NCBI GenBank assembly: GCA_964471565.1
Contig: CAYYFK010000002.1
Location: forward strand, 849 to 64,848
DNA from: Candidatus Woesearchaeota archaeon
GTDB lineage: Archaea > Nanobdellota > Nanobdellia > SCGC-AAA011-G17 > PNOQ01
Length of the DNA: 64,000 bases
Direction: 5' to 3'
Shown: one piece after another, positions 27,226 to 50,121 of the stretch
Layout: every line of letters begins with the position of its first letter
Position numbering within the stretch: position 1 is the first letter of the stretch
Made by a program: the position numbers and the translations under genes
The notes under the pieces: model-generated
The model's input: only the letters and a program-made list of their open reading frames with translations
What the model was told of the DNA's origin: nothing
Database searches by the model: none

Positions 27226-28071
27226 ATGGATAAAAACCAGTCGAGAAAACTAAAAGAAGAAATTATTCAACTAAAGAGAAGTTTAAATGAATTAAATGTC
27301 CAAAAAGAGAATTGGTTTTCTAAGAAAGAGAATTTAAAAAAAGATATTTCTGGGTTGATTGGAAAGATTAAATCTCTTAAATTAAAAAAAGATCAATCTA
27401 ATGAGAATATTCAAAAATTGAAATCAGAGAGAGATAAATACAACAAAGAAGTACAAGAATTAATAAAAAAATTCCAAGAGATGGACAAACAAAAACAAAA
27501 AGTTCTCAAAGAAAAGAAGATTAATTTTAATCCATCAAATTTAATAAAAAAAATTGAAGAATTAGAATTCATGGTAGAGACAGAAGGAGTTTCTTTTGAA
27601 AAAGAAAAAGCTATTATGAAACAAATAAATCAATTCAAAAAACAGCTCAAGGATGCAGGAGATGTTCAAGCATTATTTAAAGAATTAAAAGATTTTTCTG
27701 ATAAAATAACAGAAACTAAGAAAAAAGCAGAAGAAGCACACAAAAAAGTACAAAACGAATCAAAAAAAGCAAAAAGTTATTCTGAGTTTTTTGAATTAAC
27801 AAAAAAAATTAATGACATTAGAAAAGAACAAGAACAGGCATTCAAGAAGTTTATAGAATCAAAAGAAAAATTCTCTAAAGTAAATGAACAATTAAAAGAA
27901 AAATTAAAATCGGCAAAAGAAATGGGAGAACAGATTCTTTCAAAAAATACTAAAGATACAGAAAAATTCTTACAAGAAAAAGTTAGAGAAGTTGAAGAAA
28001 AACTAAAAACAAAGAAAAAACTTACAACCGATGATCTAATGGTTTTTCAAGGTTCTCAAGATAATAAATAA
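27226..28071 (+). CDS. hypothetical K/E-rich coiled-coil protein
   Basis: 281 aa of heptad-like K/E/Q repeats; no enzymatic motif. Confidence 0.35.
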   Translation: MDKNQSRKLKEEIIQLKRSLNELNVQKENWFSKKENLKKDISGLIGKIKSLKLKKDQSNENIQKLKSERDKYNKEVQELIKKFQEMDKQKQKVLKEKKINFNPSNLIKKIEELEFMVETEGVSFEKEKAIMKQINQFKKQLKDAGDVQALFKELKDFSDKITETKKKAEEAHKKVQNESKKAKSYSEFFELTKKINDIRKEQEQAFKKFIESKEKFSKVNEQLKEKLKSAKEMGEQILSKNTKDTEKFLQEKVREVEEKLKTKKKLTTDDLMVFQGSQDNK

Positions 28072-28457
28072 GACTTCTCCACACTATGTATGCCCCATTG
28101 CTCTCCACTTCTTTCCTTTCGAAGATCCAACAGTTTTCTTATTGCTATGTCATTCCCAGTTTTTGCCTTTTCATATAATCTACTACCAGAAGGAATCAAT
28201 CTCTCAAATTCTACTAATCTTTTCTCATGAGCCACCAATTCTTCCAGTGCCTTATCTTTTATAGATCCATCTGGTAGTGATCCAACCTCTTCCTCAGACA
28301 TACCAGGGTGTTCTGGTTTTGCTAAGTATGAGTAAACTCCCTGTGAATCCAAAAGTCTAAAAAGATTTGAAAAAGCTTCTTTTTCTTGTTCAGGTGTAGA
28401 AACATCCCATACGCAAGGTTCTTCCACCCTTTTCCCATAGATTAATATTTTTTTCAT
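28056..28457 (-). CDS. hypothetical protein
   Basis: 133-aa ORF convergent with and overlapping 16 nt of the coiled-coil gene; slightly GC-richer. Confidence 0.3.
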   Translation of the reverse strand: MKKILIYGKRVEEPCVWDVSTPEQEKEAFSNLFRLLDSQGVYSYLAKPEHPGMSEEEVGSLPDGSIKDKALEELVAHEKRLVEFERLIPSGSRLYEKAKTGNDIAIRKLLDLRKERSGEQWGIHSVEKSYLLS

Positions 28458-28571: not shown

Positions 28572-29033
28572 ATGTTATACTTCGAACAAATCCTAACAAT
28601 TGCGCTTTTTACTCTGATACCCTTGCTAGAGCTTAGAGCAAGCATACCGATAGGAATTGGCATGGGTGTACCTTGGCCAATTGTTTTTATTACCGCAGTT
28701 GTAGCTAATATTCTACTGGGTCCACTAATTTATATTTTTCTAGATAAATTTATTCATTTACTAATAAGATATAAATTATTTAGAGTTCCTTATAATAAGT
28801 TAGTAAGAAGAACACAAAGAAGAATTCATAAAAAAGTAGAGAAATACGGAGAATGGGCGGTAGCGCTTTTTATAGCAGTTCCATTACCGGGAAGCGGAAG
28901 CTATTCTGGAGCGTTAGCAGCATATCTAATAGGACTAGGATATAAAAAATTCATAATTGCAAATATTATTGGAGTATTAATAGCTGGGATTATAATAACA
29001 TTAGCATCTTTAGGGCTTTTTTCTCTTCTTTAA
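28572..29033 (+). CDS. small multidrug-export-like membrane protein (COG2426-like)
   Basis: Four TM helices with LELRASIPIGIGMG and LPGSGSYSGALAAYLIG motifs. Confidence 0.45.
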   Translation: MLYFEQILTIALFTLIPLLELRASIPIGIGMGVPWPIVFITAVVANILLGPLIYIFLDKFIHLLIRYKLFRVPYNKLVRRTQRRIHKKVEKYGEWAVALFIAVPLPGSGSYSGALAAYLIGLGYKKFIIANIIGVLIAGIIITLASLGLFSLL

Positions 29034-29546
29034 AAAACTCTTTTCATAAAAATATTTCAAATCAGAATAATAAGGTATTTTATCTACTTTGAACTTCTTA
29101 ACCAAAAATATCCAAACCAAAGCAATATACACTCCAGAAACAAAGTTCCAGAACAAAAGATGAACTGCATCAAAATAACTAGCCCCGAATTCAACGTTTA
29201 AAACAACTAATATTACAATTCTTAGGAGATTCATGCCCAAAATTAGCAAACTTCCTAAGAGAAACATTTTCAAACCTTTTTTCCAATTTAAATTCTTTAA
29301 ACCAATAATAAGAATAAATAATAAATAATATGCTGCAGGGGCAACACAAGCCTCAATAAATTTAAATCCTGTATCCCCTATACCTATACTATCTCTAATT
29401 AGCAAAACATCATAAAACAAATTTAATAAAAAATAGCTCAAATTAACAGTAATTGGTGCCAAAATAACATAAAATATAGGATAACCAAGGGTAACACCCA
29501 AAATAATAAGAAATCTTACAATTAATTGATAATAATACTTAATCAT
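29010..29546 (-). CDS. archaeosortase/exosortase-like mini membrane protein (pacearchaeosortase-like)
   Basis: 178 aa, 5-6 TM; candidate active-site Cys (IEACVAPAAYY) and Arg (NLLRIVIL) in exosortase-like positions; divergent from a C-terminally anchored surface protein. Confidence 0.45.
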   Translation of the reverse strand: MIKYYYQLIVRFLIILGVTLGYPIFYVILAPITVNLSYFLLNLFYDVLLIRDSIGIGDTGFKFIEACVAPAAYYLLFILIIGLKNLNWKKGLKMFLLGSLLILGMNLLRIVILVVLNVEFGASYFDAVHLLFWNFVSGVYIALVWIFLVKKFKVDKIPYYSDLKYFYEKSFLKKRKKP

Positions 29547-29664
29547 AGCAATATCTTTAAGAAATAAACTTATAAAATTAACTCTTAGAAACCTATAGAA
29601 ACCTTTATAAGCGATTCACAACTCCACAAGTGTAACAAAATATCGATATTATGGGGGTTTCAGA

Positions 29665-31308
29665 ATGAACAAAAAAATATCATTTTTAGGAGTATTTTTG
29701 CTTTTAATAGCTGTTTTTGCTAATGCATCTGTAACTTCTGAAAATGTCACAGACTCAGTAAATCCGGGAGAAATAGTATCCGGAGAGTTCACGTTACTTA
29801 ATGATTATGGTACAAATTATTCAAATGTGACCTTTGAGTTGGGGATTTTAGGGTTAATTGAAGAAGATGTAACATTTAATCCAGAGATTATAACCCAATT
29901 TGACATTGATCAGGAAGAAACAGTTGAATTCAGTTTTAAAGTGCCAGAGCACCAAGAGACTGGAACATATACAGGAAAAATAACTGTAAAAGCAGATGAT
30001 GGAGCAACAGTTGTAGAAACTGATGCACTTGTATTTGATTTTGATGTTAATGAACAAAGAGCATTTAGTATAAGTCCAACTGAAGACACAATTTCTGTTG
30101 ATCAAGGAGAATCAGAAGATTTATTTCTTGATATCACAAACGATGGTAACGTTATTTATGACTTAGTAACACTTACTTTTGATTTAGATGAACCATTTGA
30201 AGATGATGGTGGAAATCAAATTGAAGTAACATTTGATCAAAACGATTTTACATTAAATCCAGGTCAAACAAAACAAGTTACTATAACAGTTACACCAGAA
30301 GAAGATCAATACTTGGGTTACTTAACTGAAAATATTCAGGTTATAGCTAAAGCTGGAGACATAGAAGATCTAAAAGAATTTGAACTAACTGTTGATACAA
30401 CATCAGATATCGTTGAAGTTGAATTAGACGACGACGATTTAGATGATGAATTAGAACCGGGCGATACATTCCATTTCGAAATAGATGTAGAAAACATAGC
30501 AGACTATGATTTGGAAGACATCGAAGTTAAGGTGTGGGTTATAGACATTGACAGTGGAAGCGACCTTTCTGAGAAAGCATCAAAATTTGACTTAGATCAT
30601 GGAGATGTTGATGATGTTAGATTTGATTTCGAAGTTCCGTTAAGTGTTGATGAAGAAGAATTTGATATCAAAGTAAGAGTGGAAGGAGAAGATAAAGACG
30701 ATTCAAGTAACAAATTTGAAGTTACAAAAATCTTCAGAAATCAAGTAGATGTAGTTAAAGATAATAGCTATGAAGTCTATTTCGATGATATCAGTTTGTC
30801 TTCAACTGACTTAAGATGTGATTCCGAATTTAGAGTCTCTTTTGACTTGATTAATGTCGGAGATAACAATCTAGATGATATGTATATTAAATTATTTATT
30901 AATGAACTTGATCTAGAATACACATCAGAGACATTCAACCTAGATGCTGATGACGAAGACGATAGAGATAAATCACTTCAATTTAATGTAAGGCTTCCTT
31001 CAAATCTTGAAAAGAATAGTTACGAGATGAAATTTTATGCATATGATGAAGACGATGATCAATTTGATGTTGAATCATATGTAATTAGCGTAACACCATG
31101 TCAAGGTATAGAAGATGCTGATGACGAAGAGATTGTAGTAACATCTAACCAAGATGATAATCAAAATGTTGTATTCCTACCTACAGGATGGGCAGGTCTT
31201 GGATTAAACCAAGATACATGGACAACAATATTTTGGATTTTGGGAGATATTGTCTTAGTGATTGTAGCATTATACTTCTTAGTCTTGTTATTCAAGAAAA
31301 GAAGATAA
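29665..31308 (+). CDS. hyper-acidic repeat surface protein with signal peptide and C-terminal TM plus basic tail (S-layer/sortase-substrate candidate)
   Basis: Signal peptide MNKKISFLGVFLLLIAVFANA; four repeats of about 110 aa; D/E runs (DDDDLDDE, DADDEDDRD); C-terminus LPTGWAGLG...IVLVIVALYFLVLLFKKRR. Confidence 0.55.
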   Translation: MNKKISFLGVFLLLIAVFANASVTSENVTDSVNPGEIVSGEFTLLNDYGTNYSNVTFELGILGLIEEDVTFNPEIITQFDIDQEETVEFSFKVPEHQETGTYTGKITVKADDGATVVETDALVFDFDVNEQRAFSISPTEDTISVDQGESEDLFLDITNDGNVIYDLVTLTFDLDEPFEDDGGNQIEVTFDQNDFTLNPGQTKQVTITVTPEEDQYLGYLTENIQVIAKAGDIEDLKEFELTVDTTSDIVEVELDDDDLDDELEPGDTFHFEIDVENIADYDLEDIEVKVWVIDIDSGSDLSEKASKFDLDHGDVDDVRFDFEVPLSVDEEEFDIKVRVEGEDKDDSSNKFEVTKIFRNQVDVVKDNSYEVYFDDISLSSTDLRCDSEFRVSFDLINVGDNNLDDMYIKLFINELDLEYTSETFNLDADDEDDRDKSLQFNVRLPSNLEKNSYEMKFYAYDEDDDQFDVESYVISVTPCQGIEDADDEEIVVTSNQDDNQNVVFLPTGWAGLGLNQDTWTTIFWILGDIVLVIVALYFLVLLFKKRR

Positions 31309-31371: not shown

Positions 31372-32133
31372 ATGAGAAAAGAGGATGAAAAAAAAGTAGT
31401 TATAGAACTCAAGGGAGTTTGCAAATACTATCGTATGGGGGAGAACATTGTTAGGGCAGTAGACGGGGCCTCTCTAAAAATTAAGGAAGGAGATTTTGTT
31501 GCAATCATGGGGCCATCTGGTTCTGGAAAATCCACAATGATGAACCTAATAGGAAGTTTAGATGTTCCAACAAAGGGAAAGATATTTTTAGATAGAGAAG
31601 ATATTTCAACATTCAGCGAATCAGATTTAGCTCAATTACGTGGGAAAAAAATAGGATTTATTTTTCAATCATTTAATTTAATTAATAACCTTACTGCAAA
31701 AGAGAATGTTATGATTCCAATGATATTTCAAGACCATGATTTAGATGATAGGAATTTTAGAGCAAATAAATTAATGCAATTAGTTCAACTTACAGATAGA
31801 ATGCATCACTCTCCTGGAGAACTTTCCGGAGGACAGCAACAAAGAGTTGCAATTGCAAGATCATTAGCAAACTCTCCAGAAGTTATTCTTGCAGATGAAC
31901 CAACAGGGAACTTAGATACAAAAACTGGAGCAACAGTTATGGACTTCTTAGAAGATTTAAATAAAAAAGGCAAAACAATAATTATGGTTACCCACGATCC
32001 GGATTTGGCAAAAGACCATGCTGATGTAGTATATTGGCTAAAAGATGGAAAGATTGAAAAAGTAACAAAGAAAAAAAATGGGTGGAGCAAGGAACAAAAT
32101 AAAAAACTAAGCAATCCTAAGGAGAATAAGTAG
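31372..32133 (+). CDS. ABC transporter ATP-binding protein (MacB/LolD/FtsE type)
   Basis: Walker A GPSGSGKST, signature LSGGQQQRVAIARSL, Walker B ILADEPTGNLD, H-loop. Confidence 0.9.
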   Translation: MRKEDEKKVVIELKGVCKYYRMGENIVRAVDGASLKIKEGDFVAIMGPSGSGKSTMMNLIGSLDVPTKGKIFLDREDISTFSESDLAQLRGKKIGFIFQSFNLINNLTAKENVMIPMIFQDHDLDDRNFRANKLMQLVQLTDRMHHSPGELSGGQQQRVAIARSLANSPEVILADEPTGNLDTKTGATVMDFLEDLNKKGKTIIMVTHDPDLAKDHADVVYWLKDGKIEKVTKKKNGWSKEQNKKLSNPKENK

Positions 32134-32134
32134 G

Positions 32135-33358
32135 ATGATAAGTGATTTCTTCTCTCTTGCAATAAAAAACCTTAAACACAGAGGAATTAGGTCATGGCTA
32201 ACATTATTAGGAATATTTATTGGAGTAACAGCAGTAGTTTCTTTAATCTCGCTAGGAAACGGTCTTCAATTAGCTGTTGCAAGCCAGTTAGGAATTAGTG
32301 CAAATGAATTGGTCACCGTCCAAGCTGGAGGTTTAAGTGGTTTTGGTCCACCAGGAAGTAATGTAGTTGACCCACTTACTCAAGATGATGCAGATGCTAT
32401 AGAAAGGCTAAGTAGTGTTGAAAATGCTGTAAGAAGAAATATTAATTCTGGCAAGATAGAATTCAATGATGTTATTCAATTTAGGTATGTAGGGAGTTTA
32501 CCTGAAAACAAAGCAGATAGAGATTTGATATACACACAATTAGACACAGAAATACTTTCTGGGAGACTAATAAAAGGAGGAGATTCAGGAAAGGTATTAC
32601 TAGGTTATAATTTTTATAATAAACCAGAGGAATGGGATGGAAAATCTGCATCTATCGGAAAAAGCATATCTGTAAATGATAAAAACTTCGAAATAATTGG
32701 AATTCTTGATAAACAAGGAAGCATTATTATGGATAATGTTGTCGTTATGAATGAAGGGGATATGAAAGATCTCTTTGGATTTGGTGACGAAGCAGGAATA
32801 ATAGTTGTAGAGCCAAAAGATAAAGAAAAAATACACAAAACAAAACAAGATATTGAAAAATTAATGAGACAAAGAAGGGGAGTTGATGAGGGAGAAGAAG
32901 ACTTTGAGGTAAGTACCCCGGAAGCAACACTATCTACAGTAAATGACATACTTACAGGTGTTCAGATCTTTATAGCAATAGTAGCACTTATCTCTGTCTT
33001 TATTGGGGCAATAGGAATAGTAAATACTATGACAACCTCCGTTCTAGAAAGAAGAAAAGAAATTGGGATTATGAAATCAGTTGGAGCTAAAAATGGCCAT
33101 ATATTTTTACAATTTTTTATAGAATCTAGCTTACTAGGTTTAATAGGAGGAATAATTGGGGCAATATTTGGTACGATTATTGGACTTTCTGGAACAATTG
33201 CGCTAAATAATTTTATGGGGACAGAATTACCATTAAATGTGGATTTTGTATTAATATTTTTCTCTTTATTGGGCAGCTTTCTAATTGGGGGAATTGCAGG
33301 AATAGTTCCAGCAATGAAAGCAGCCAAACAAAATCCAGTGGAGGCACTTAAAGGATGA
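32135..33358 (+). CDS. FtsX/MacB-family ABC permease with large extracytoplasmic domain
   Basis: N-terminal TM, 230-aa external domain, C-terminal 3-TM FtsX module (SVLERRKEIGIMKSVGA); AAGGAG Shine-Dalgarno upstream. Confidence 0.8.
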   Translation: MISDFFSLAIKNLKHRGIRSWLTLLGIFIGVTAVVSLISLGNGLQLAVASQLGISANELVTVQAGGLSGFGPPGSNVVDPLTQDDADAIERLSSVENAVRRNINSGKIEFNDVIQFRYVGSLPENKADRDLIYTQLDTEILSGRLIKGGDSGKVLLGYNFYNKPEEWDGKSASIGKSISVNDKNFEIIGILDKQGSIIMDNVVVMNEGDMKDLFGFGDEAGIIVVEPKDKEKIHKTKQDIEKLMRQRRGVDEGEEDFEVSTPEATLSTVNDILTGVQIFIAIVALISVFIGAIGIVNTMTTSVLERRKEIGIMKSVGAKNGHIFLQFFIESSLLGLIGGIIGAIFGTIIGLSGTIALNNFMGTELPLNVDFVLIFFSLLGSFLIGGIAGIVPAMKAAKQNPVEALKG

Positions 33359-34560
33359 TAAGTTTAGAAAGTATAAGATACTCCCTGAGGAATCTAAAAC
33401 AAAATAAAGGTAGAAGCCTACTAACAATCTTCTCAATATTGGTTGGGATATCAACAATTTTCATTTTCATTAGCTTTGGTTATGGATTATATAATTACAC
33501 AAATGAACTAACCTCTAGCTCGTCAGCAGATAAGGTTCTTATAATGCCAAGAACAGCAGGAGGATTTGGAGCAGTAGAAGGAGTGGTACTAAACGATACT
33601 GACGTAGATGAGATAGAAAAAGCAGCAGGAGTGTATGATGCTACAGGGCTATATTATGATGCAGTATTAGTAAAACAAAATAGTGATCAAAGATATACCT
33701 TCATCATAGGCTATGATCCAAAAAAAGATTTTGTAATGGAGTCTTTCAATATAGATGTAGAAAAGGGGAGGCTACTAAGATCTGGAGATATGAGAAAAGC
33801 AGTCTTGGGATACAATTATTTAATTTCAGATAAAATATTCTCAAAAACATATGATGTAAATGACAATATAGAAGTAAATGGGATCAATCTAAAAGTTGTA
33901 GGTATTATGGAAGAAATTGGAAATCCACAAGATGATTCACAAGTATACATAAGCAACGATCAGTTTGAAGAGATGTTTCCAGACCAAGAATCATACGGAC
34001 AAATAATTGCCAAAGTAGATATAAAAGAGATAGAAAAAGTAAATGAAAATATAGAAAGAAACCTAAGGAAATCTAGAGATGTTGAAGAAGGAAAAGAGGA
34101 TTATTATGTCCAATCATTTGATGAATTAATTGAACAATTTGCCAGCGCTCTAAATATAATAATTGGTTTTGTTATATTAATAGCATTAATTTCTGTTCTA
34201 GTATCAACCATAAATACTGCGAATACAATGATAACCTCTGTGCTTGAAAGATATAAAGAAATAGGAGTATTAAAAGCAATGGGGGCAAAGAACTCAAGTA
34301 TATTTGAAATATTTTTATTCGAAAGTGCATTCCTCGGAATAGTTGCAGGAATAATTGGAGTAGCATTTGGATGGGGAATATCTTATTTGGCAGGAGTAAT
34401 ATTAAAGAGCATGGGCTGGGGATTCTTACAACCATATTTCTCTATATATTTATTTGTGGGGTTGATTTTATTTGCTGGAATAACTGGAGCAATCTCGGGA
34501 GTTTTTCCTGCAGTTAGAGCTTCAAAAACTAATCCAGTAGATGCATTAAGAAATGAATAA
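33355..34560 (+). CDS. FtsX/MacB-family ABC permease (second copy)
   Basis: Same architecture (SVLERYKEIGVLKAMGA); ATGA overlap with upstream permease. Confidence 0.8.
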   Translation: MISLESIRYSLRNLKQNKGRSLLTIFSILVGISTIFIFISFGYGLYNYTNELTSSSSADKVLIMPRTAGGFGAVEGVVLNDTDVDEIEKAAGVYDATGLYYDAVLVKQNSDQRYTFIIGYDPKKDFVMESFNIDVEKGRLLRSGDMRKAVLGYNYLISDKIFSKTYDVNDNIEVNGINLKVVGIMEEIGNPQDDSQVYISNDQFEEMFPDQESYGQIIAKVDIKEIEKVNENIERNLRKSRDVEEGKEDYYVQSFDELIEQFASALNIIIGFVILIALISVLVSTINTANTMITSVLERYKEIGVLKAMGAKNSSIFEIFLFESAFLGIVAGIIGVAFGWGISYLAGVILKSMGWGFLQPYFSIYLFVGLILFAGITGAISGVFPAVRASKTNPVDALRNE

Positions 34561-34579: not shown

Positions 34580-35491
34580 ATGTACAAAATGATAAATATG
34601 AAAAAAGAGAGTTTTATTGGGAAAACAATATTAAGTTTAGTATTACTTTTAATTTTTGCAAGTCCGGCCATAGGGGCAACAGGTTCAGGGTGTGACTTGG
34701 GATCATCATTGATAAATCAAGATCCTTATCCAGCATTACCAGGGGAATATGTTGAGATATTATTCCAAATAGATGGGGTAGGAGATTGTGAAGAGGGCGC
34801 TGTAGCAGATTTGTTTTTAGAGTACCCATTTTCTTTAGATGGGGGAGACACAACACGGAGAATAGAATCCCCAACTTATATAGGTGGAGACCACAATTAT
34901 AATTGGAACATTTTATACAAAGTTCGAATAGATAGGGATGCACTGGAGGGAGATTATGATTTGGAGCTTAGATACACAGATGGAAGAGTATTGCCTTCAG
35001 ATGAGTATACTTTTGATAGATTTCCAATAACAATTGAAGATGGAAGAACAGATTTTGAAGTTCATGTAGAAAGCTATAATTTTGAAACTAGAAATTTAGT
35101 TTTAGAAATACTTAACATTGGGAACCAAGATATAGAGGCATTAACTATAGAAATACCAAAACAAGAGAATGTAATTATAAAAAGTTCAAACAGAAATATT
35201 GTTGGAGATTTAGACTCGAATGAATATACAACTGCAGATTTCGAGGCAATTCCTTCAGAAGGAGAAATAGTTATTAGATTACATTATACAGATTCAACTA
35301 ACGAGAGAAGGATGTTAGGAAAAACAGTTTACTATGACCCTGTATATTTTGTAGATTCTTTAGAGAATGTAAAACCAGACAAGACAACTACATATATAGT
35401 TGTAGGGATTATTGTTATTCTAGGAGTTTTCTTATTTTTAAGAAGGCGTAAAAAAAATAAGTCAAAAAAGAAAAACAAATTCGATATTTAA
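34580..35491 (+). CDS. secreted protein with C-terminal TM anchor and poly-Lys tail
   Basis: Signal peptide, 250-aa beta-rich ectodomain, C-terminus YIVVGIIVILGVFLFLRRRKKNKSKKKNKFDI; last gene of the ABC/FtsX operon. Confidence 0.5.
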   Translation: MYKMINMKKESFIGKTILSLVLLLIFASPAIGATGSGCDLGSSLINQDPYPALPGEYVEILFQIDGVGDCEEGAVADLFLEYPFSLDGGDTTRRIESPTYIGGDHNYNWNILYKVRIDRDALEGDYDLELRYTDGRVLPSDEYTFDRFPITIEDGRTDFEVHVESYNFETRNLVLEILNIGNQDIEALTIEIPKQENVIIKSSNRNIVGDLDSNEYTTADFEAIPSEGEIVIRLHYTDSTNERRMLGKTVYYDPVYFVDSLENVKPDKTTTYIVVGIIVILGVFLFLRRRKKNKSKKKNKFDI

Positions 35492-45699: not shown

Positions 45700-47490
45700 T
45701 TAATGTCCAAAATATACAGAAAAGTTAGGTAACTTAAGTTTCTTCTCTTTATTTGTTCTAAAATTCAAAATATCAGAATCAATACAATTTTCTTCATTGT
45801 CACAAACAATGATTTGATAGTTATGCCATGTTTTTGGATGTAAGTCAGTTAAAACATAGTTATGTTCCATCTTATACTCTGTAGAAATTATCTCCATGTC
45901 TAAATCTCCTTCCCCATATCTCAAAGTAGAAGTACTGGCCTCGCTAGTATTAAATTTCACTCTAGCACTAGTAGGTTGTATTCCGTAAACTTGAATGTCC
46001 CAGATTTCAGGAATTTCATTAGAGGCAAATAAATGAGAACCCCCTCCCCATTCAAATTCATCCCTCAAATCAAAAAAAGTAAAATAACTAATGTTCTGAC
46101 TTCCAATAATCTGTTCATGCTCTCCTTGATAATAGTTATTATCAAAGAAGTTACTTCCACTTTCAATTACATCAACACTACTCCCAACGTAAATTGCAAG
46201 TTCCCCTAGATTAACAAACATAGTATTATTGTACCAACTAGAATTATACAATGGTCTTCCAGCGGATTCAGTATTATCTATCCTCATACATCTATCATAA
46301 TTGCAATTAACAACATTATCAAAAATTTTATTATTCCATCCAGCATTATCTACAATAGCAACAGTCGTAGCATTATAAACTTCATTTCCAAAAACCAAAG
46401 CATCATTATTTCCTTTCAAAGCCAGGCCATATCCACCACCATCAAGATAATTTCCACTAATTATAGAATTTTTAGTAAATCCAACAAACAAATTATGCTT
46501 ATATGTTTCCTCTGCTGGCATATACAATCTGTTTCCAGAAATATTTGCTCCAATTAAATCAAATTCCTGCTCAGACTCTGAACCAACAGCTATACCATAC
46601 CTATTCAAAGAATGGTAAATAAAAAATGAATTATTAACCATTCTTGGATTTTCAACATCTTTAATATTGGAATAAACAGTTATCCCATTACCATCTCCAA
46701 TATATAACTCATTATTCTCAATAATAAAGTTATCAGAATCTATAACTCTAATAAACGTAGCATATGTATCTAAAAAGAGAGGATTCTCTTCAGATCCAAA
46801 GATATTGTTTTTTATAGAAGAGTTGCTAGAATTAAATGCATATAGCAAACTTTCTTTTCCCGAAAAAAATTGATTATTTTCTATCCTACTATTTTTCAAA
46901 TTAGTTAATATAACTGGACTAAAATCCATATGGAGATTATCATAACCAAAAGTATTGTTCTCCATTACATTATTTTCTCCTCCTTTCAGAGAAATCCCAT
47001 AATCTAGAAAATTAATAAACTGATTATTTCTAAAAACCTTATTACCATATGAAGAATCCATCCCCAACACTGCAGAATTTTGTCCATCGAAAACAAATCC
47101 CTCAAAAATAGTCAATTCTGGACCAACAAATAAAATCATTCTATTTACATCAGGACCAACTTTCAGAACAACATTCCCCATCCCGATGAAAGTTCTATTT
47201 TCCTTTTCTTGATTAACATATAAATATCCTCCCCATTGGCTATCTTCAAGATATTCTCCTTCATAAATAAGGATTTCAGAGTTTTCGTTAGAGTTTTCTA
47301 AAGAATAAGCAATACTTTTCCAAGCAGTTTCATAACTCAATCCCTCTGAAGAGTCACTTCCATCAACCCTTACATGGTAAGTTTCTCCAAGAACAAATGG
47401 GGACACAAGAAAAAAAATGAGAAATATAACTTTTTTTGACATTGTAACCGAGGAAATGGGGCTTTTTTTATAAAAATTTATTATCTCCAT
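45700..47490 (-). CDS. secreted right-handed parallel beta-helix protein with C-terminal FN3/Ig-like domain
   Basis: Signal peptide; repeated NN.F/I..G...G.. coils (NNQF, ENNTF, IENNQFF, IENNEL); Asn-rich. Confidence 0.6.
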   Translation of the reverse strand: MEIINFYKKSPISSVTMSKKVIFLIFFLVSPFVLGETYHVRVDGSDSSEGLSYETAWKSIAYSLENSNENSEILIYEGEYLEDSQWGGYLYVNQEKENRTFIGMGNVVLKVGPDVNRMILFVGPELTIFEGFVFDGQNSAVLGMDSSYGNKVFRNNQFINFLDYGISLKGGENNVMENNTFGYDNLHMDFSPVILTNLKNSRIENNQFFSGKESLLYAFNSSNSSIKNNIFGSEENPLFLDTYATFIRVIDSDNFIIENNELYIGDGNGITVYSNIKDVENPRMVNNSFFIYHSLNRYGIAVGSESEQEFDLIGANISGNRLYMPAEETYKHNLFVGFTKNSIISGNYLDGGGYGLALKGNNDALVFGNEVYNATTVAIVDNAGWNNKIFDNVVNCNYDRCMRIDNTESAGRPLYNSSWYNNTMFVNLGELAIYVGSSVDVIESGSNFFDNNYYQGEHEQIIGSQNISYFTFFDLRDEFEWGGGSHLFASNEIPEIWDIQVYGIQPTSARVKFNTSEASTSTLRYGEGDLDMEIISTEYKMEHNYVLTDLHPKTWHNYQIIVCDNEENCIDSDILNFRTNKEKKLKLPNFSVYFGH

Positions 47491-47536: not shown

Positions 47537-50121
47537 ATGAAAAAAGGGGTTGTATTGTTATTTTTATTGCTAGTAAGTATATTCCAAGCTAGTGCTGCAA
47601 CTTACTACGTTTCTAAGCAAGGGAGTGATGCAAATGCAGGTACATCCTGGGCAGATGCATGGCTAACAATAAATAACGCAGAAAACAATGCAGGCGCACA
47701 TTCTTTAATCTATGTGGGGGATGGAACCTACAGAGAACAATCTTATGGATCAACAGATTATTTAGTCTTAGATAATGCTGTCCAGAATAGAACTTTTGTT
47801 TCTTTTAACAGATCTCAGGCAATAATCCAACCGAATAAAAGTACTGGAAGTGTAGTTGTAAGATTCATTGCTGGAGCAAACAATGTAACTTTCAAAGGCT
47901 TTGTATTAGATGGAAATAATACAGCCTCCTCAGGAATGTGGGCAGACCAAGGGACTGGGTATATCTTCCTTTACAATAATACATTTGTAAACACAACCAC
48001 CCAAGCAATCCACCTATACGATAACGGTGGTTCTTCAGGACCAAAACACAACTGGCATATAGGGGGAATGTGTTCAACAACACAAAAATAGGAATTCTTG
48101 GGTCTCACTCAGAGAATATCACAATCTTAAACAATAACTTCACATACAAACTAACAGACTCAGCAATAAAGATGTACTATGCAGGGTCTAATAACACTTT
48201 GATACAAGGAAATTTCTTCGAAAATAACTCCCAGACTAGACAGATATTAATAGATGATATAGGAACAAATTGTCAAATAAAAGACAATACATTTGGAAGT
48301 CCAAATGATTATATAACCAAATATTCAATAGAGTTAAACAGTGCACCAAATGTTTTAATAAAAAACAACACATTCTGGCAAGGTAATTTCTCTGCAGCTT
48401 GGGTTTCAATTTATGCTATTGGAAATAACAATTCTGGATTAAAGGTACAAAACAACAGATGGGGTAATGACACAGCTTTCCTAAATCTCTCAACAGGATA
48501 TGCTCTTTACGTAGTAAATGCATCTCACAGTATATATGAAAATAACTCTTTATACCTACAAGATGGAAAGGGAATTATCATAAGGGGATCAAAGAATGGA
48601 AGACACAAAAATATGACAATAAGAAATAACACTTTTGATCATGATGTAACTGCTACATCCATTCCAAACAGATTGTCTATAGCAATTGGGGGAGATAATA
48701 TTCTTAATAACGATGGAGACCTAAACGATACCATAATAGAAAACAATACAATAAGAATGGCAAGTGTACACACTAGCAAGCACCCACTATTCACAGCATC
48801 AAATTTCAACGTGACAATAAGATATAATACTGTAATTGGTGGAGGATATGGAATCTTATCCAAACATGACACGCTCTATAGAGCTTACAACAACACTATG
48901 GAGAACCAAACAAACTTTGAAGGGTTTGTAACAAGAGCGGGGCATAATATCTCTGTATACAACAATACTTTCCTTTGCCCAAACTATAACAGAACTGAAA
49001 GCCCATATGCCATAGTAGCAAAGAATGCTAATGAAGGCCCAGCAAGAAATGTAACTAACTTCCAATCATACAATAATAGATTCTACATGCACAATCAAAG
49101 TTACATATATGCCTTTTCAGAGAATGGAACAAATTTCTCAAATACTAACTTTACATCTCATGATAATATAATAATTTTAAATAATTCAAACCAGAATATG
49201 TCATGGGAAGTCAACAGTATAAATAGATATAATTTTACGGAGTTTCAAAAGAATTACACATTAGAAACAAATTCTATATTCTCGGCAACAAGAGAAGTTC
49301 CATGGGTTTTTAATAAATCAAGTAATGTATCTCATACAACTGGAACAATAAATTGGACTAGTCAAGAATCTGCAAATGCTTCTATAGATTATGGGACTTC
49401 TTTATCTTTTGGGACAACATATGGAAACACAAGTTTAGGACTATTTCATTCGATAAATATATCTGATTTAGTTAGGGGGACACAATATTATTATAACATA
49501 ACTATGTGTGATTATGAAAATAATTGTAATGAGACTGGACCATACAATTTCACCACATTAGTAGACGCTCAAGATGATTCTTCAGATGATTCTGGTGGAG
49601 ATAGCTCCCCAGATTATGTGGGAGTAGATTATTATGAACCCGATGCAGAAGAAATAGAAAATAGATTGATGTGGAGGGATGTTAAAGAAAGAGATTCAAT
49701 AAACTTCATATACAGAGATGAATCACACAGAATAGAAATAAGAAGATTTTTTTATGATAAATCCAAGATAGTAATCTTTTCTGAACCAAAAGAAGTGATA
49801 GTTTATTTTGGTAGAATAAAAAGAGTAGACCTGGACCTAGACGGAGAAGATGATATAATTGTAGAGGCAACAAAGCAAACAATATCAACTTTCAAAATAA
49901 GTATAAGAGAAATTAATATTCCAGTTTCAACAGAATATGAAGGGCCAGAAGAAGAAATTACAGGAGAATCAATCGCTCCAATCATAGAAGAAGATTACCA
50001 AGAAGAAACTTCTTACGGAAATTTAATCATTCCAATACTCTCACTATTCGCAATAATAGGAATAGCTGGAATATTATTGGTATTGGTAAGTTTAAAAAGA
50101 AAAAAGAAAAAATCAAGATAA
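47537..50121 (+). pseudogene. beta-helix surface protein paralog with C-terminal TM anchor, interrupted by a -1 frameshift at a G5 tract
   Basis: Track ORFs 47537..48091 and 48070(GTG)..50121 are colinear with the 45700..47490 paralog; a sixth G at 48062-48066 gives continuous ...HIGGNVFNNTKIG...; C-terminus IIGIAGILLVLVSLKRKKKKSR. Confidence 0.55.

Follow-up and report, generated by a model that had tools for sequence, protein, structure and literature searches.

Does a small membrane protein gene, standing back to back with the gene of a strongly acidic exported protein, encode the enzyme that anchors this neighbour at the cell surface, and is such a pair new? DPANN archaea, to which this question applies here, are mostly uncultured and the construction of their envelope is largely inferred. 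The window, i.e. the whole stretch of 64,000 nucleotides that was analysed, comes from a Candidatus Woesearchaeota archaeon. A sequence-only reading of it had proposed a miniature archaeosortase of 178 aa at 29010..29546 and, as its substrate, the product of the divergent neighbouring gene. Both ORFs are present as claimed, the first on the minus strand, the second, of 547 aa, at 29665..31308 on the plus strand.

Identity of the 178-residue protein

The NCBIfam model NF033505, named 'pacearchaeosortase', matches the 178-residue protein with 139.6 bits (cutoff 80, E 1e-40). The alignment runs end to end, residues 6-170 of the protein corresponding to profile positions 2-166 of 167. The exosortase/archaeosortase signature TIGR04178 is recognized at residues 65-148 (34.7 bits, cutoff 23). 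The Pfam model PF09721 (Exosortase_EpsH) gives 17.1 bits, under its gathering score of 25.7, and its match is confined to profile positions 109-250 of 254; the 178-residue protein is thus the counterpart of the C-terminal portion of longer enzymes. No Pfam match to a CPBP (CAAX) protease or a rhomboid was obtained at E<=1. The hydropathy profile is that of a polytopic protein with about 5 hydrophobic helices. Judged by its sequence, the protein belongs to the exosortase/archaeosortase superfamily, of which it is a minimal member with roughly 5 TM helices. The initial reading was right in this respect, and the pacearchaeosortase model that it proposed to search is the very one that matches above cutoff. 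It had named three observations as speaking against it, namely no HMM similarity, a Cys and an Arg that are not conserved, and membership in an unrelated family; none of them was made. The enzyme is not unusually small as had been supposed, 178 aa being the median length of the family and the XrtF and XrtX models being similarly short.

The Cys and the Arg that had been singled out, Cys67 and Arg109, are a family-invariant pair, and Cys67 is the sole Cys of the protein. Among 149 representatives, one from each 50%-identity cluster, R109 and H129 are found in all 149 and C67 and N106 in 148 each. C67, R109 and H129 are also invariant in 22/22 aligned sequences with identities down to 33%. In ArtA, the archaeosortase of Haloferax volcanii, Cys173 and Arg214 are experimentally critical and are separated by 41 residues (PMC9263693), against 42 between C67 and R109. 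The family-conserved motif K153...I157-P158-x-Y-S-D162, with P158 in 146 and D162 in 144 of the 149 representatives, is located outside the TIGR04178 match. Another arginine, R11, is invariant and lies outside the superfamily signature region. The AF2 model of the protein has a pLDDT of 86.7. With loop 84-93, which is positive, and the basic tail 150-178 both placed in the cytoplasm, C67, R109 and H129 would lie near the outer face of the membrane.

The two ORFs are divergent with a spacer of 118 bp, in which the minus-strand element TTTTATAA lies 24-32 nt ahead of the sortase ATG. The coordinates of all features are collected in Table 1.

Table 1. Features of the pacearchaeosortase locus (positions refer to the window)
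Feature	Position	Strand	Remarks
Pacearchaeosortase gene	29010..29546	-	178 aa, ~5 TM helices, basic tail predicted cytoplasmic; NF033505, TIGR04178, hydropathy
Conserved motif K153...I157-P158-x-Y-S-D162	29061..29090	-	family-conserved, predicted cytoplasmic
His129 codon	29160..29162	-	invariant, predicted outer end of TM5
Arg109 codon	29220..29222	-	predicted catalytic Arg, outer half of TM4; within NLLRIVIL
Asn106 codon	29229..29231	-	near-invariant
Cys67 codon	29346..29348	-	predicted catalytic nucleophile, outer end of TM3; within IEACVAPAAYY
Divergent intergenic region	29547..29664		118 bp, direct sequence reading
TTATAAAA	29570..29577	reads TTTTATAA on -	candidate promoter element, picked by eye
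TATA-like TTTATAA	29604..29610	+	candidate promoter element, picked by eye
GGGGG, Shine-Dalgarno-like run	29653..29657		picked by eye
PACE-CTERM-type putative S-layer protein gene	29665..31308	+	547 aa; NF033506
Predicted Sec signal peptide, residues 1-21, MNKKISFLGVFLLLIAVFANA	29665..29727	+	putative cleavage after A-N-A
Four tandem acidic all-beta (Ig/CARDB-like) domains	29728..31092	+	AF2 model, hhalign
Acidic disordered linker, residues 482-517	31108..31215	+	holds subfamily motif LPTGW at 31177..31191
C-terminal sorting signal, helix residues 518-546	31216..31305	+	FWILGD at 31231..31248; basic KKRR at 31294..31305

The divergent neighbour

The 547-residue protein is matched by NF033506, 'PACE-CTERM-PROT, putative S-layer protein', with 126.8 bits (cutoff 110), over profile positions 8-477 of 627 only. 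An S-layer function is termed putative here, the label of this model, itself worded 'putative', being its one source. The description of the neighbour as hyper-acidic and provided with a signal peptide is borne out: D+E amounts to 24.9% and the pI to 4.05, no other product of the 53 window ORFs with 150 aa or more being as acidic (mean D+E 13.8%, sd 4.3), and the N-terminal sequence is signal-like. Residues 1-21 have a low pLDDT and their pattern is kept in homologues.

The AF2 model (pLDDT 80.4) contains four beta domains, at residues 22-128, 134-246, 250-363 and 371-476. When the four segments of ~110 aa are compared by hhalign, 4/6 segment pairs reach 88-97% probability; no internal sequence repeat is detected by BLASTP at E<=10. 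The four tandem repeats initially described are therefore retained as four diverged tandem domains, but not as repeats at the level of the sequence. Pfam CARDB scores 25.0 bits, and the Foldseek matches are generic strings of Ig-like, MG or ASH domains. The linker that follows is predicted to be disordered, with a pLDDT <50 for residues 482-519.

The C-terminal sorting signal

The protein terminates in ...FLPTGWAGLGLNQDTWTTIFWILGDIVLVIVALYFLVLLFKKRR. The C-terminal signal had to be validated by an HMM of our own and not by the curated model, since the NF033506 match stops at profile position 477/627. This tail HMM, trained on the tails of 19 other partners and built without the window protein, gives the 547-residue protein 66.5 bits; the next window ORF obtains 10.8. 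The tripartite C-terminus that had been described stands as far as the helix and KKRR are concerned, but LPTGW is limited to one subfamily. PTG occurs in only 16/33 partner tails and is missing from 17/33, which is the reason why LPTGW, tried as a universal sorting motif, was rejected as a family-wide signature. By contrast, 28/33 partners have W-x-x-[G/A/L]-D (also counted as [WF]xxxD) at the outward end of their C-terminal helix. This element within the helix, and not LPTGW, is the conserved sorting element.

Processing could alternatively take place in the upstream linker at LPTG, in the manner of a sortase and as the initial reading had it, the helix with its Asp acting as a retention or recognition element only. 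This we regard as unlikely. Within the subfamily of the window protein [LMY]-P-T-G-[WF] is kept even at 34-44% overall identity, the looser [PVI]-T-G is found in 21/33 partner tails, and the modelled disorder of the linker would make the motif accessible; against this, the 17 partners devoid of PTG accompany clear sortase homologues, [WF]xxxD is more widespread, and the characterised or curated exosortase/archaeosortase signatures (PEP, PGF) abut the helix (PMC6098224). Moreover, LPTG lacks one residue of LPXTG, the system contains no sortase-fold protein, and the tail of the 547-aa protein is matched neither by TIGR01167 nor by the Pfam anchor models.

Two further window proteins had been proposed as candidate substrates. 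Both lack W-x-x-[G/A/L]-D and their tails are generic TM-plus-basic anchors, which reduces the proposed set of three to one. For 34580..35491 the tail HMM score of 10.8 bits stems from an alignment on the TM/basic part that skips W-x-x-G-D, and 7% of its TM-shuffled tails reach the same score. TIGR01167 (LPXTG_anchor) matches it with 19.3 bits (cutoff 15.9) at profile positions 9-34 only, i.e. the TM helix and basic tail, the motif not being covered, and PGF_CTERM (TIGR04126) remains under its cutoff (11.3 bits, cutoff 24.5). The other candidate, 47537..50121, is a frameshifted gene that splits into the ORFs 47537..48091 and 48070..50121, each read in another frame; its tail HMM score is -2.7 bits.

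Gene pairing across related loci

Related loci numbering 26 were compared, all from MAGs of Woesearchaeota, Pacearchaeota, Nanoarchaeia or Nanoarchaeota, or from one named only 'archaeon'. A partner gene adjoins the sortase homologue in 19 of ~21 informative loci. The partners are signal-peptide proteins of 445-651 aa, encoded upstream of the sortase homologue and on the opposite strand in every case but one (L026), and 8/10 of those tested passed NF033506. Partners of ~640-650 aa match this model to about position 616 and have one additional domain, the window target being a shorter four-domain variant. The enzyme/substrate pairing proposed for the divergent neighbour is thus upheld, both by the NF033506 score and by its recurrence. 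Searched against the 530 ORFs of the 26 loci, the tail HMM finds one match per locus at >=36.9 bits, the next best score being 10.6; the training of the model on neighbours in the other loci makes this result circular in part for these, though not for the window. Five related loci have a PAP2 lipid phosphatase gene next to that of the sortase homologue; within the window, tblastn found no PAP2 homologue.

Proposed processing of the target

What the analysis establishes is family membership, the conservation of three residues, of the gene pairing and of a C-terminal signal, and the presence of one ORF per locus that bears this signal. The locus, in a DPANN (Woesearchaeota-like) archaeon, very probably consists of a pacearchaeosortase and a single dedicated target, a highly acidic surface protein with four beta-sandwich domains that is a putative S-layer subunit. 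The N-terminal signal peptide would direct the target to Sec for export, and the C-terminal helix would keep it in the membrane for a time, KKRR facing the cytoplasm. The sortase, predicted to have Cys67, Arg109 and His129 toward the outer leaflet, would recognise this helix by the W-x-x-[G/A/L]-D at its outer end. Both catalysis and the position of the cut are predictions: Cys67 would cleave the target to form a thioester acyl-enzyme. If the analogy with ArtA of Haloferax applies, an amine-bearing membrane lipid, the presumed acceptor, may then receive the new C-terminus, which would leave the target lipid-anchored in place of helix-anchored. Cleavage by ArtA goes together with covalent lipid anchoring, for which a thioester/archaetidylethanolamine model was proposed (PMC7157517; PMC6098224).

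The transfer step could be missing altogether if the enzyme were a maturation or release protease only, hydrolysis removing the helix and the target being shed or kept non-covalently in the lattice. From the Cys/Arg/His set nothing beyond the cleavage chemistry can be deduced, no PssA/PssD-type gene of lipid-headgroup synthesis was seen among the genes beside the locus in the window, and the extreme acidity of the target could favour a cation-bridged, non-covalent attachment. We nevertheless hold a pure protease for very unlikely: ArtA, the only studied relative, couples cleavage to covalent lipid attachment, the PAP2 genes beside five sortase homologues hint at a lipid link, and a cell with one surface-layer protein would lose its anchor. 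That the 178-residue protein is an unrelated membrane protease (CPBP/CAAX or rhomboid) or a co-located non-enzymatic membrane protein finds no support other than the sub-threshold score of the Pfam exosortase model and is effectively refuted by the NF033505 and TIGR04178 matches, the absence of CPBP and rhomboid matches and the conservation of C67, R109 and H129.

A more speculative reading goes further, and we put it forward as doubtful. The acidic residue in the outer half of the helix (W-x-x-G-D) might be read through an intramembrane charge pair with R109 or R11; the pair might form a strict one-enzyme, one-substrate system that is the sole cell-wall anchoring in Woesearchaeota and Pacearchaeota; and in some lineages the PAP2 lipid phosphatase might prepare or recycle the lipid acceptor. 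No description of any part of this reading was met in the literature searched.

Comparison with known systems

The closest known system is the pair defined by NF033505 and NF033506. Both window proteins exceed the curated cutoffs, the enzyme has 178 aa for a model of 167 positions, and the lineage (Woesearchaeota, Pacearchaeota, Nanoarchaeia relatives) and the adjacency of the genes agree, so that no essential difference is left. With ArtA the enzyme has in common the superfamily signature TIGR04178 and the nature of a polytopic Cys enzyme, and the substrate of ArtA is likewise an S-layer protein whose C-terminus consists of a motif, a TM helix and a basic tail (PMC6098224). ArtA is larger, with about 300 aa encoded by a 912-bp gene (PMC7157517); its predicted substrates number 9 in H. 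volcanii and as many as 52 elsewhere (PMC6098224), against one adjacent target here. They carry the motif PGF, and their genes do not cluster with that of ArtA, in contrast with the W-x-x-G-D motif and the adjacent gene of the present locus. No ArtA model matches the 178-residue enzyme at E<=1 and PGF_CTERM (TIGR04126) is absent from the 547-residue target; membership in the ArtA/PGF-CTERM system was rejected since no model matches on either protein.

A comparable minimal size is found in XrtF (TIGR04128, 174 positions) and XrtX (NF046081, 168 positions), which the catalytic half of the enzyme (about residues 61-154) resembles weakly (22.8 and 21.7 bits, respectively). These scores are far under the cutoffs of 90 and 170, and both families are bacterial and have different cognate signals; the 178-residue protein thus belongs to neither. 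Gram-positive sortases obey the same logic, a Cys transpeptidase acting on a C-terminal motif followed by a helix and a basic tail, whereas their fold and family are unrelated (PMC6098224); the 547-residue target contains LPTG, not LPXTG, and is matched by no anchor model.

Significance for archaeal surface anchoring

The pair is of a known kind, since curated NCBIfam models already name it (pacearchaeosortase and PACE-CTERM protein) and a protein 83% identical to the enzyme, its closest public homologue, is already annotated 'pacearchaeosortase' at NCBI. Standard annotation would name both genes automatically, and the initial idea that they could newly define the anchoring system of the lineage gives way to the two existing models. 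The new content is limited to the actual conserved signal, W-x-x-G-D, and to the removal of the two proposed extra substrates. In the literature searched, 'pacearchaeosortase' and 'PACE-CTERM' are not mentioned, no experiment on members of the family was found, and ArtA is the only superfamily member for which experiments were found. Among the natural exosortase/archaeosortase systems available, none is simpler than this 178-aa sortase and its one neighbouring target. Since the PDB copy searched contains no solved structure of the superfamily and the experiments found concern ArtA only, this pair could serve as a compact model for the structure and mechanism of these enzymes.

The enzyme and its putative S-layer target

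The 178-aa protein is a pacearchaeosortase. Basic (pI 9.6) and with about five hydrophobic helices according to sequence analysis, it scores 139.6 bits (cutoff 80, E 1e-40) with the NCBIfam model NF033505 'pacearchaeosortase', the alignment running from profile position 2 to 166 of 167, and 34.7 bits (cutoff 23) with the signature model of the superfamily, TIGR04178 'exosortase/archaeosortase family protein'. These matches are decisive for the archaeosortase-like identity proposed in a sequence-only reading; for the alternative raised there, a CPBP or rhomboid protein, the Pfam search returned no such family at E<=1. The Pfam model Exosortase_EpsH stayed sub-threshold (17.1 against 25.7) and its alignment was limited to profile positions 109-250 of 254, so that the enzyme is the counterpart of the C-terminal, catalytic part of longer enzymes. 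The closest public homologue (83% identity) is named 'pacearchaeosortase [Candidatus Woesearchaeota archaeon]' by NCBI, and the identical 178-aa sequence is found on at least 24 public metagenome contigs. A full-library profile search retrieved relatives in 161, 358 and 892 clusters (50% identity) at E<=1e-30, E<=1e-10 and E<=1e-3, respectively. The small size remarked on initially is the family norm, 178 aa being the median length of the best 149 representatives, and the exosortase models XrtF (174 positions) and XrtX (168 positions) are equally short.

The divergent gene, 118 bp away, codes for a putative S-layer protein with a signal-like N-terminal sequence, 24.9% Asp+Glu and a pI of 4.05, the most acidic of the 53 non-overlapping window ORFs of at least 150 aa (mean 13.8%, sd 4.3). 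It matches NF033506 'PACE-CTERM-PROT, putative S-layer protein' with 126.8 bits (cutoff 110), only profile positions 8-477 of 627 being aligned. Longer partners in other genomes reach about position 616, so the window target is a shorter, four-domain variant. The four tandem repeats described previously hold as domains, not as sequence repeats: BLASTP of the protein against itself found none at E<=10. Profile-profile comparison of four segments of ~110 aa gave probabilities of 95.9% (1 v 2), 97.2% (3 v 4), 94.0% (1 v 3) and 87.8% (1 v 4), and the AlphaFold2 model (pLDDT 80.4) contains all-beta domains at residues 22-128, 134-246, 250-363 and 371-476, followed by a disordered linker (482-519) and a single long terminal helix (518-546). 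Foldseek returned generic strings of Ig-like, MG or ASH domains.

Features of the window and PAP2 genes of related loci (L008 to L025, loci in other genomes carrying enzyme relatives)
Feature	Coordinates	Strand	Basis
Conserved sortase neighbourhood, second interval	27226..28071	+	
133-aa ORF	28056..28457	-	
PF06695 'small multidrug export' / VTT-like membrane protein	28572..29033	+	
Pacearchaeosortase, 178 aa	29010..29546	-	ORF listing
K-x-x-x-I-P-x-Y-S-D motif	29061..29090	-	
PACE-CTERM-type putative S-layer protein, 547 aa	29665..31308	+	ORF listing
MacB-type ABC transporter	31372..34560	+	
MacB-type ATPase	31372..32133	+	
FtsX/MacB_PCD permease	32135..33358	+	
FtsX/MacB_PCD permease	33355..34560	+	
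Secreted protein, 303 aa	34580..35491	+	
Beta_helix/NosD paralogue	45700..47490	-	
Signal-peptide ORF	47537..48091	+	
Beta_helix ORF, C-terminal TM, KRKKKKSR tail	48070..50121	+	
PAP2, L008	5262..5819		
PAP2, L017	5178..5783		
PAP2, L021	5322..5906		
PAP2, L022	2975..3511		
PAP2, L025	5281..5856		

Putative catalytic residues and predicted topology

C67 in IEACVAPAAYY, the sole cysteine of the enzyme, R109 in NLLRIVIL and H129 further along are invariant across 22 aligned homologues with identity down to 33%, as are R11, T33, N106, W133, W145, P158 and D162. Among the best 149 representatives, Cys67 and Asn106 are each kept in 148, Arg109 and His129 in all 149; the Cys and Arg singled out at the outset are therefore conserved. 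In archaeosortase A (ArtA) of Haloferax, Cys173, Arg214 and Arg253 were found critical by experiment, and the Cys-to-Arg distance is 41 residues (Cys173-Arg214) against 42 in the enzyme (PMC9263693).

The AlphaFold2 model of the enzyme (pLDDT 86.7) comprises helices 2-20, 23-42, 65-81, 88-120 and 122-151 and a small beta element (47-62). Two strongly basic stretches, the loop 84-93 (KNLNWKKGLK) and the tail 150-178, are for that reason placed in the cytoplasm. From this assignment and the modelled helices, all three residues would lie toward the outer leaflet: C67 and H129 at the outer ends of TM3 and TM5, respectively, and R109 within the outer half of TM4. A family-wide motif, K-x-x-x-I-P-x-Y-S-D (residues 153-162), predicted to be cytoplasmic, stands past the last TM helix and beyond the superfamily signature region (P158 in 146/149 and D162 in 144/149 representatives). 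Conservation is as strong for R11 and T33, which belong to the first two helices.

The sorting signal

The target C-terminus reads ...FLPTGWAGLGLNQDTWTTIFWILGDIVLVIVALYFLVLLFKKRR. Alignment of partner tails gave the consensus ...F-W-I-l-g-D-i-v-L-v-i-i-i-I-y-f-l-k-l-l-F-k-k-r-k, with [WF]-x-x-x-D in 28 of 33 partner proteins and an Asp within the hydrophobic run in 29. In the target, FWILGD occupies residues 523-528, within the predicted helix. The signature common to the family thus adjoins the helix and runs into it, like PEP and PGF in known systems (PMC6098224). LPTGW, first taken for the sorting signature, lies in the disordered linker (residues 505-509), and PTG, present in 16/33 partners, is confined to the window's own subfamily; the looser [PVI]-T-G occurs in 21/33. 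Cleavage at the PTG site within this subfamily is one of the two main live alternatives to the scheme proposed below. A profile of the tails of 19 other partners, built without the window protein (the tail HMM), scored the target tail at 66.5 bits.

Conservation of the pair and its surroundings

Scanning one genome per species yielded 26 loci with enzyme relatives, from MAGs of Woesearchaeota, Pacearchaeota, Nanoarchaeia or Nanoarchaeota and one labelled only 'archaeon'. About 21 of these loci had enough DNA upstream of the sortase gene, and 19 of them encode a 445-651-aa protein there, at 100 bp to 3.9 kb and on the opposite strand except in one locus (L026). These partners share a signal sequence at the N-terminus, an anchor helix at the C-terminus and a D+E content of 14-26%. 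Eight of ten tested passed the NF033506 cutoff; one scored 103.4 and one had no match.

The 3' end of the sortase gene overlaps the convergent PF06695 gene by 24 nt. Most related loci retain this neighbour along with a DUF7121 coiled-coil protein and ribosomal P0/P1/L1 genes, so the surroundings of the sortase are conserved core genome rather than an island. The 133-aa ORF has no Pfam or NCBIfam match at E<=1 and is called as a gene on three other public contigs carrying the window locus (L027, L028, L029). A gap of 63 bp separates the S-layer-like gene from the MacB-type transporter directly behind it; this order is the same in three related loci (L001, L003, L009), so there may be a functional connection with the export of envelope proteins or lipids.

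Five related loci encode a PAP2-superfamily lipid phosphatase (67-79 bits) directly upstream of the sortase homologue; four of these have it between sortase and target, and in L017 no target was found. The window has no PAP2 homologue. These neighbours may offer a clue to the part that lipid plays in anchoring.

Other candidate substrates

Two further proteins had been proposed as substrates, and this three-member set shrinks to one. The 303-aa secreted protein, with a C-terminal TM and a basic tail (orthologue in L001, 74..973), was rejected: it reached 10.8 bits with the tail HMM against 66.5 for the target, by an alignment of helix and basic tail alone that skipped W-x-x-G-D, and 7% of trials with a shuffled helix scored likewise. 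TIGR01167 LPXTG_anchor matched it at 19.3 bits (cutoff 15.9) through profile positions 9-34 only (TM and basic part); the LPXTG motif is thus absent and this automatic annotation is likely a false positive. The second candidate, 47537..50121, fails as a single-ORF substrate, being two ORFs in different frames with a tail at -2.7 bits. They overlap near 48064..48091, beside a G5 run (48064..48068) and an A5 run (48084..48088), and resemble a single gene for a right-handed beta-helix surface protein that a frameshift has split, whether a sequencing error, a pseudogene or slippage. The Beta_helix/NosD paralogue is divergent from them. Among the 530 ORFs of the 26 related loci, exactly one per locus matched the tail HMM (at least 36.9 bits; next best 10.6), a count that shows only the absence of additional matches since tails of those loci trained the HMM. 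The local substrate set is one.

Proposed mechanism

Homology with ArtA suggests the following scheme. After export by Sec, the target would stay parked through its C-terminal helix until the enzyme recognizes W-x-x-G-D. Cleavage by Cys67 would proceed via a thioester intermediate, to be resolved by an amine-bearing archaeal lipid, and the surface protein would end up lipid-anchored; the thioester and lipid steps follow the ArtA model (PMC7157517; reviewed in PMC6098224). The analysis establishes family membership, the conservation of residues and signal, and synteny, whereas catalysis, cleavage site, acceptor, outward active-site placement and S-layer identity are putative. Hydrolysis without transfer is the other main live alternative to lipid anchoring.

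Relation to known systems

Both proteins fall squarely within curated NCBIfam families, two in all, and PGAP would name them automatically; the pair is therefore already known as a kind. It differs from the ArtA system of Haloferax volcanii in enzyme size and motif, in its one adjacent target and in the lack of ArtA or PGF-CTERM model matches. In the literature searched, no paper named pacearchaeosortase or PACE-CTERM, and no structure or experiment was found for pacearchaeosortase. What is new beyond the known pair is the description of its sorting signal.
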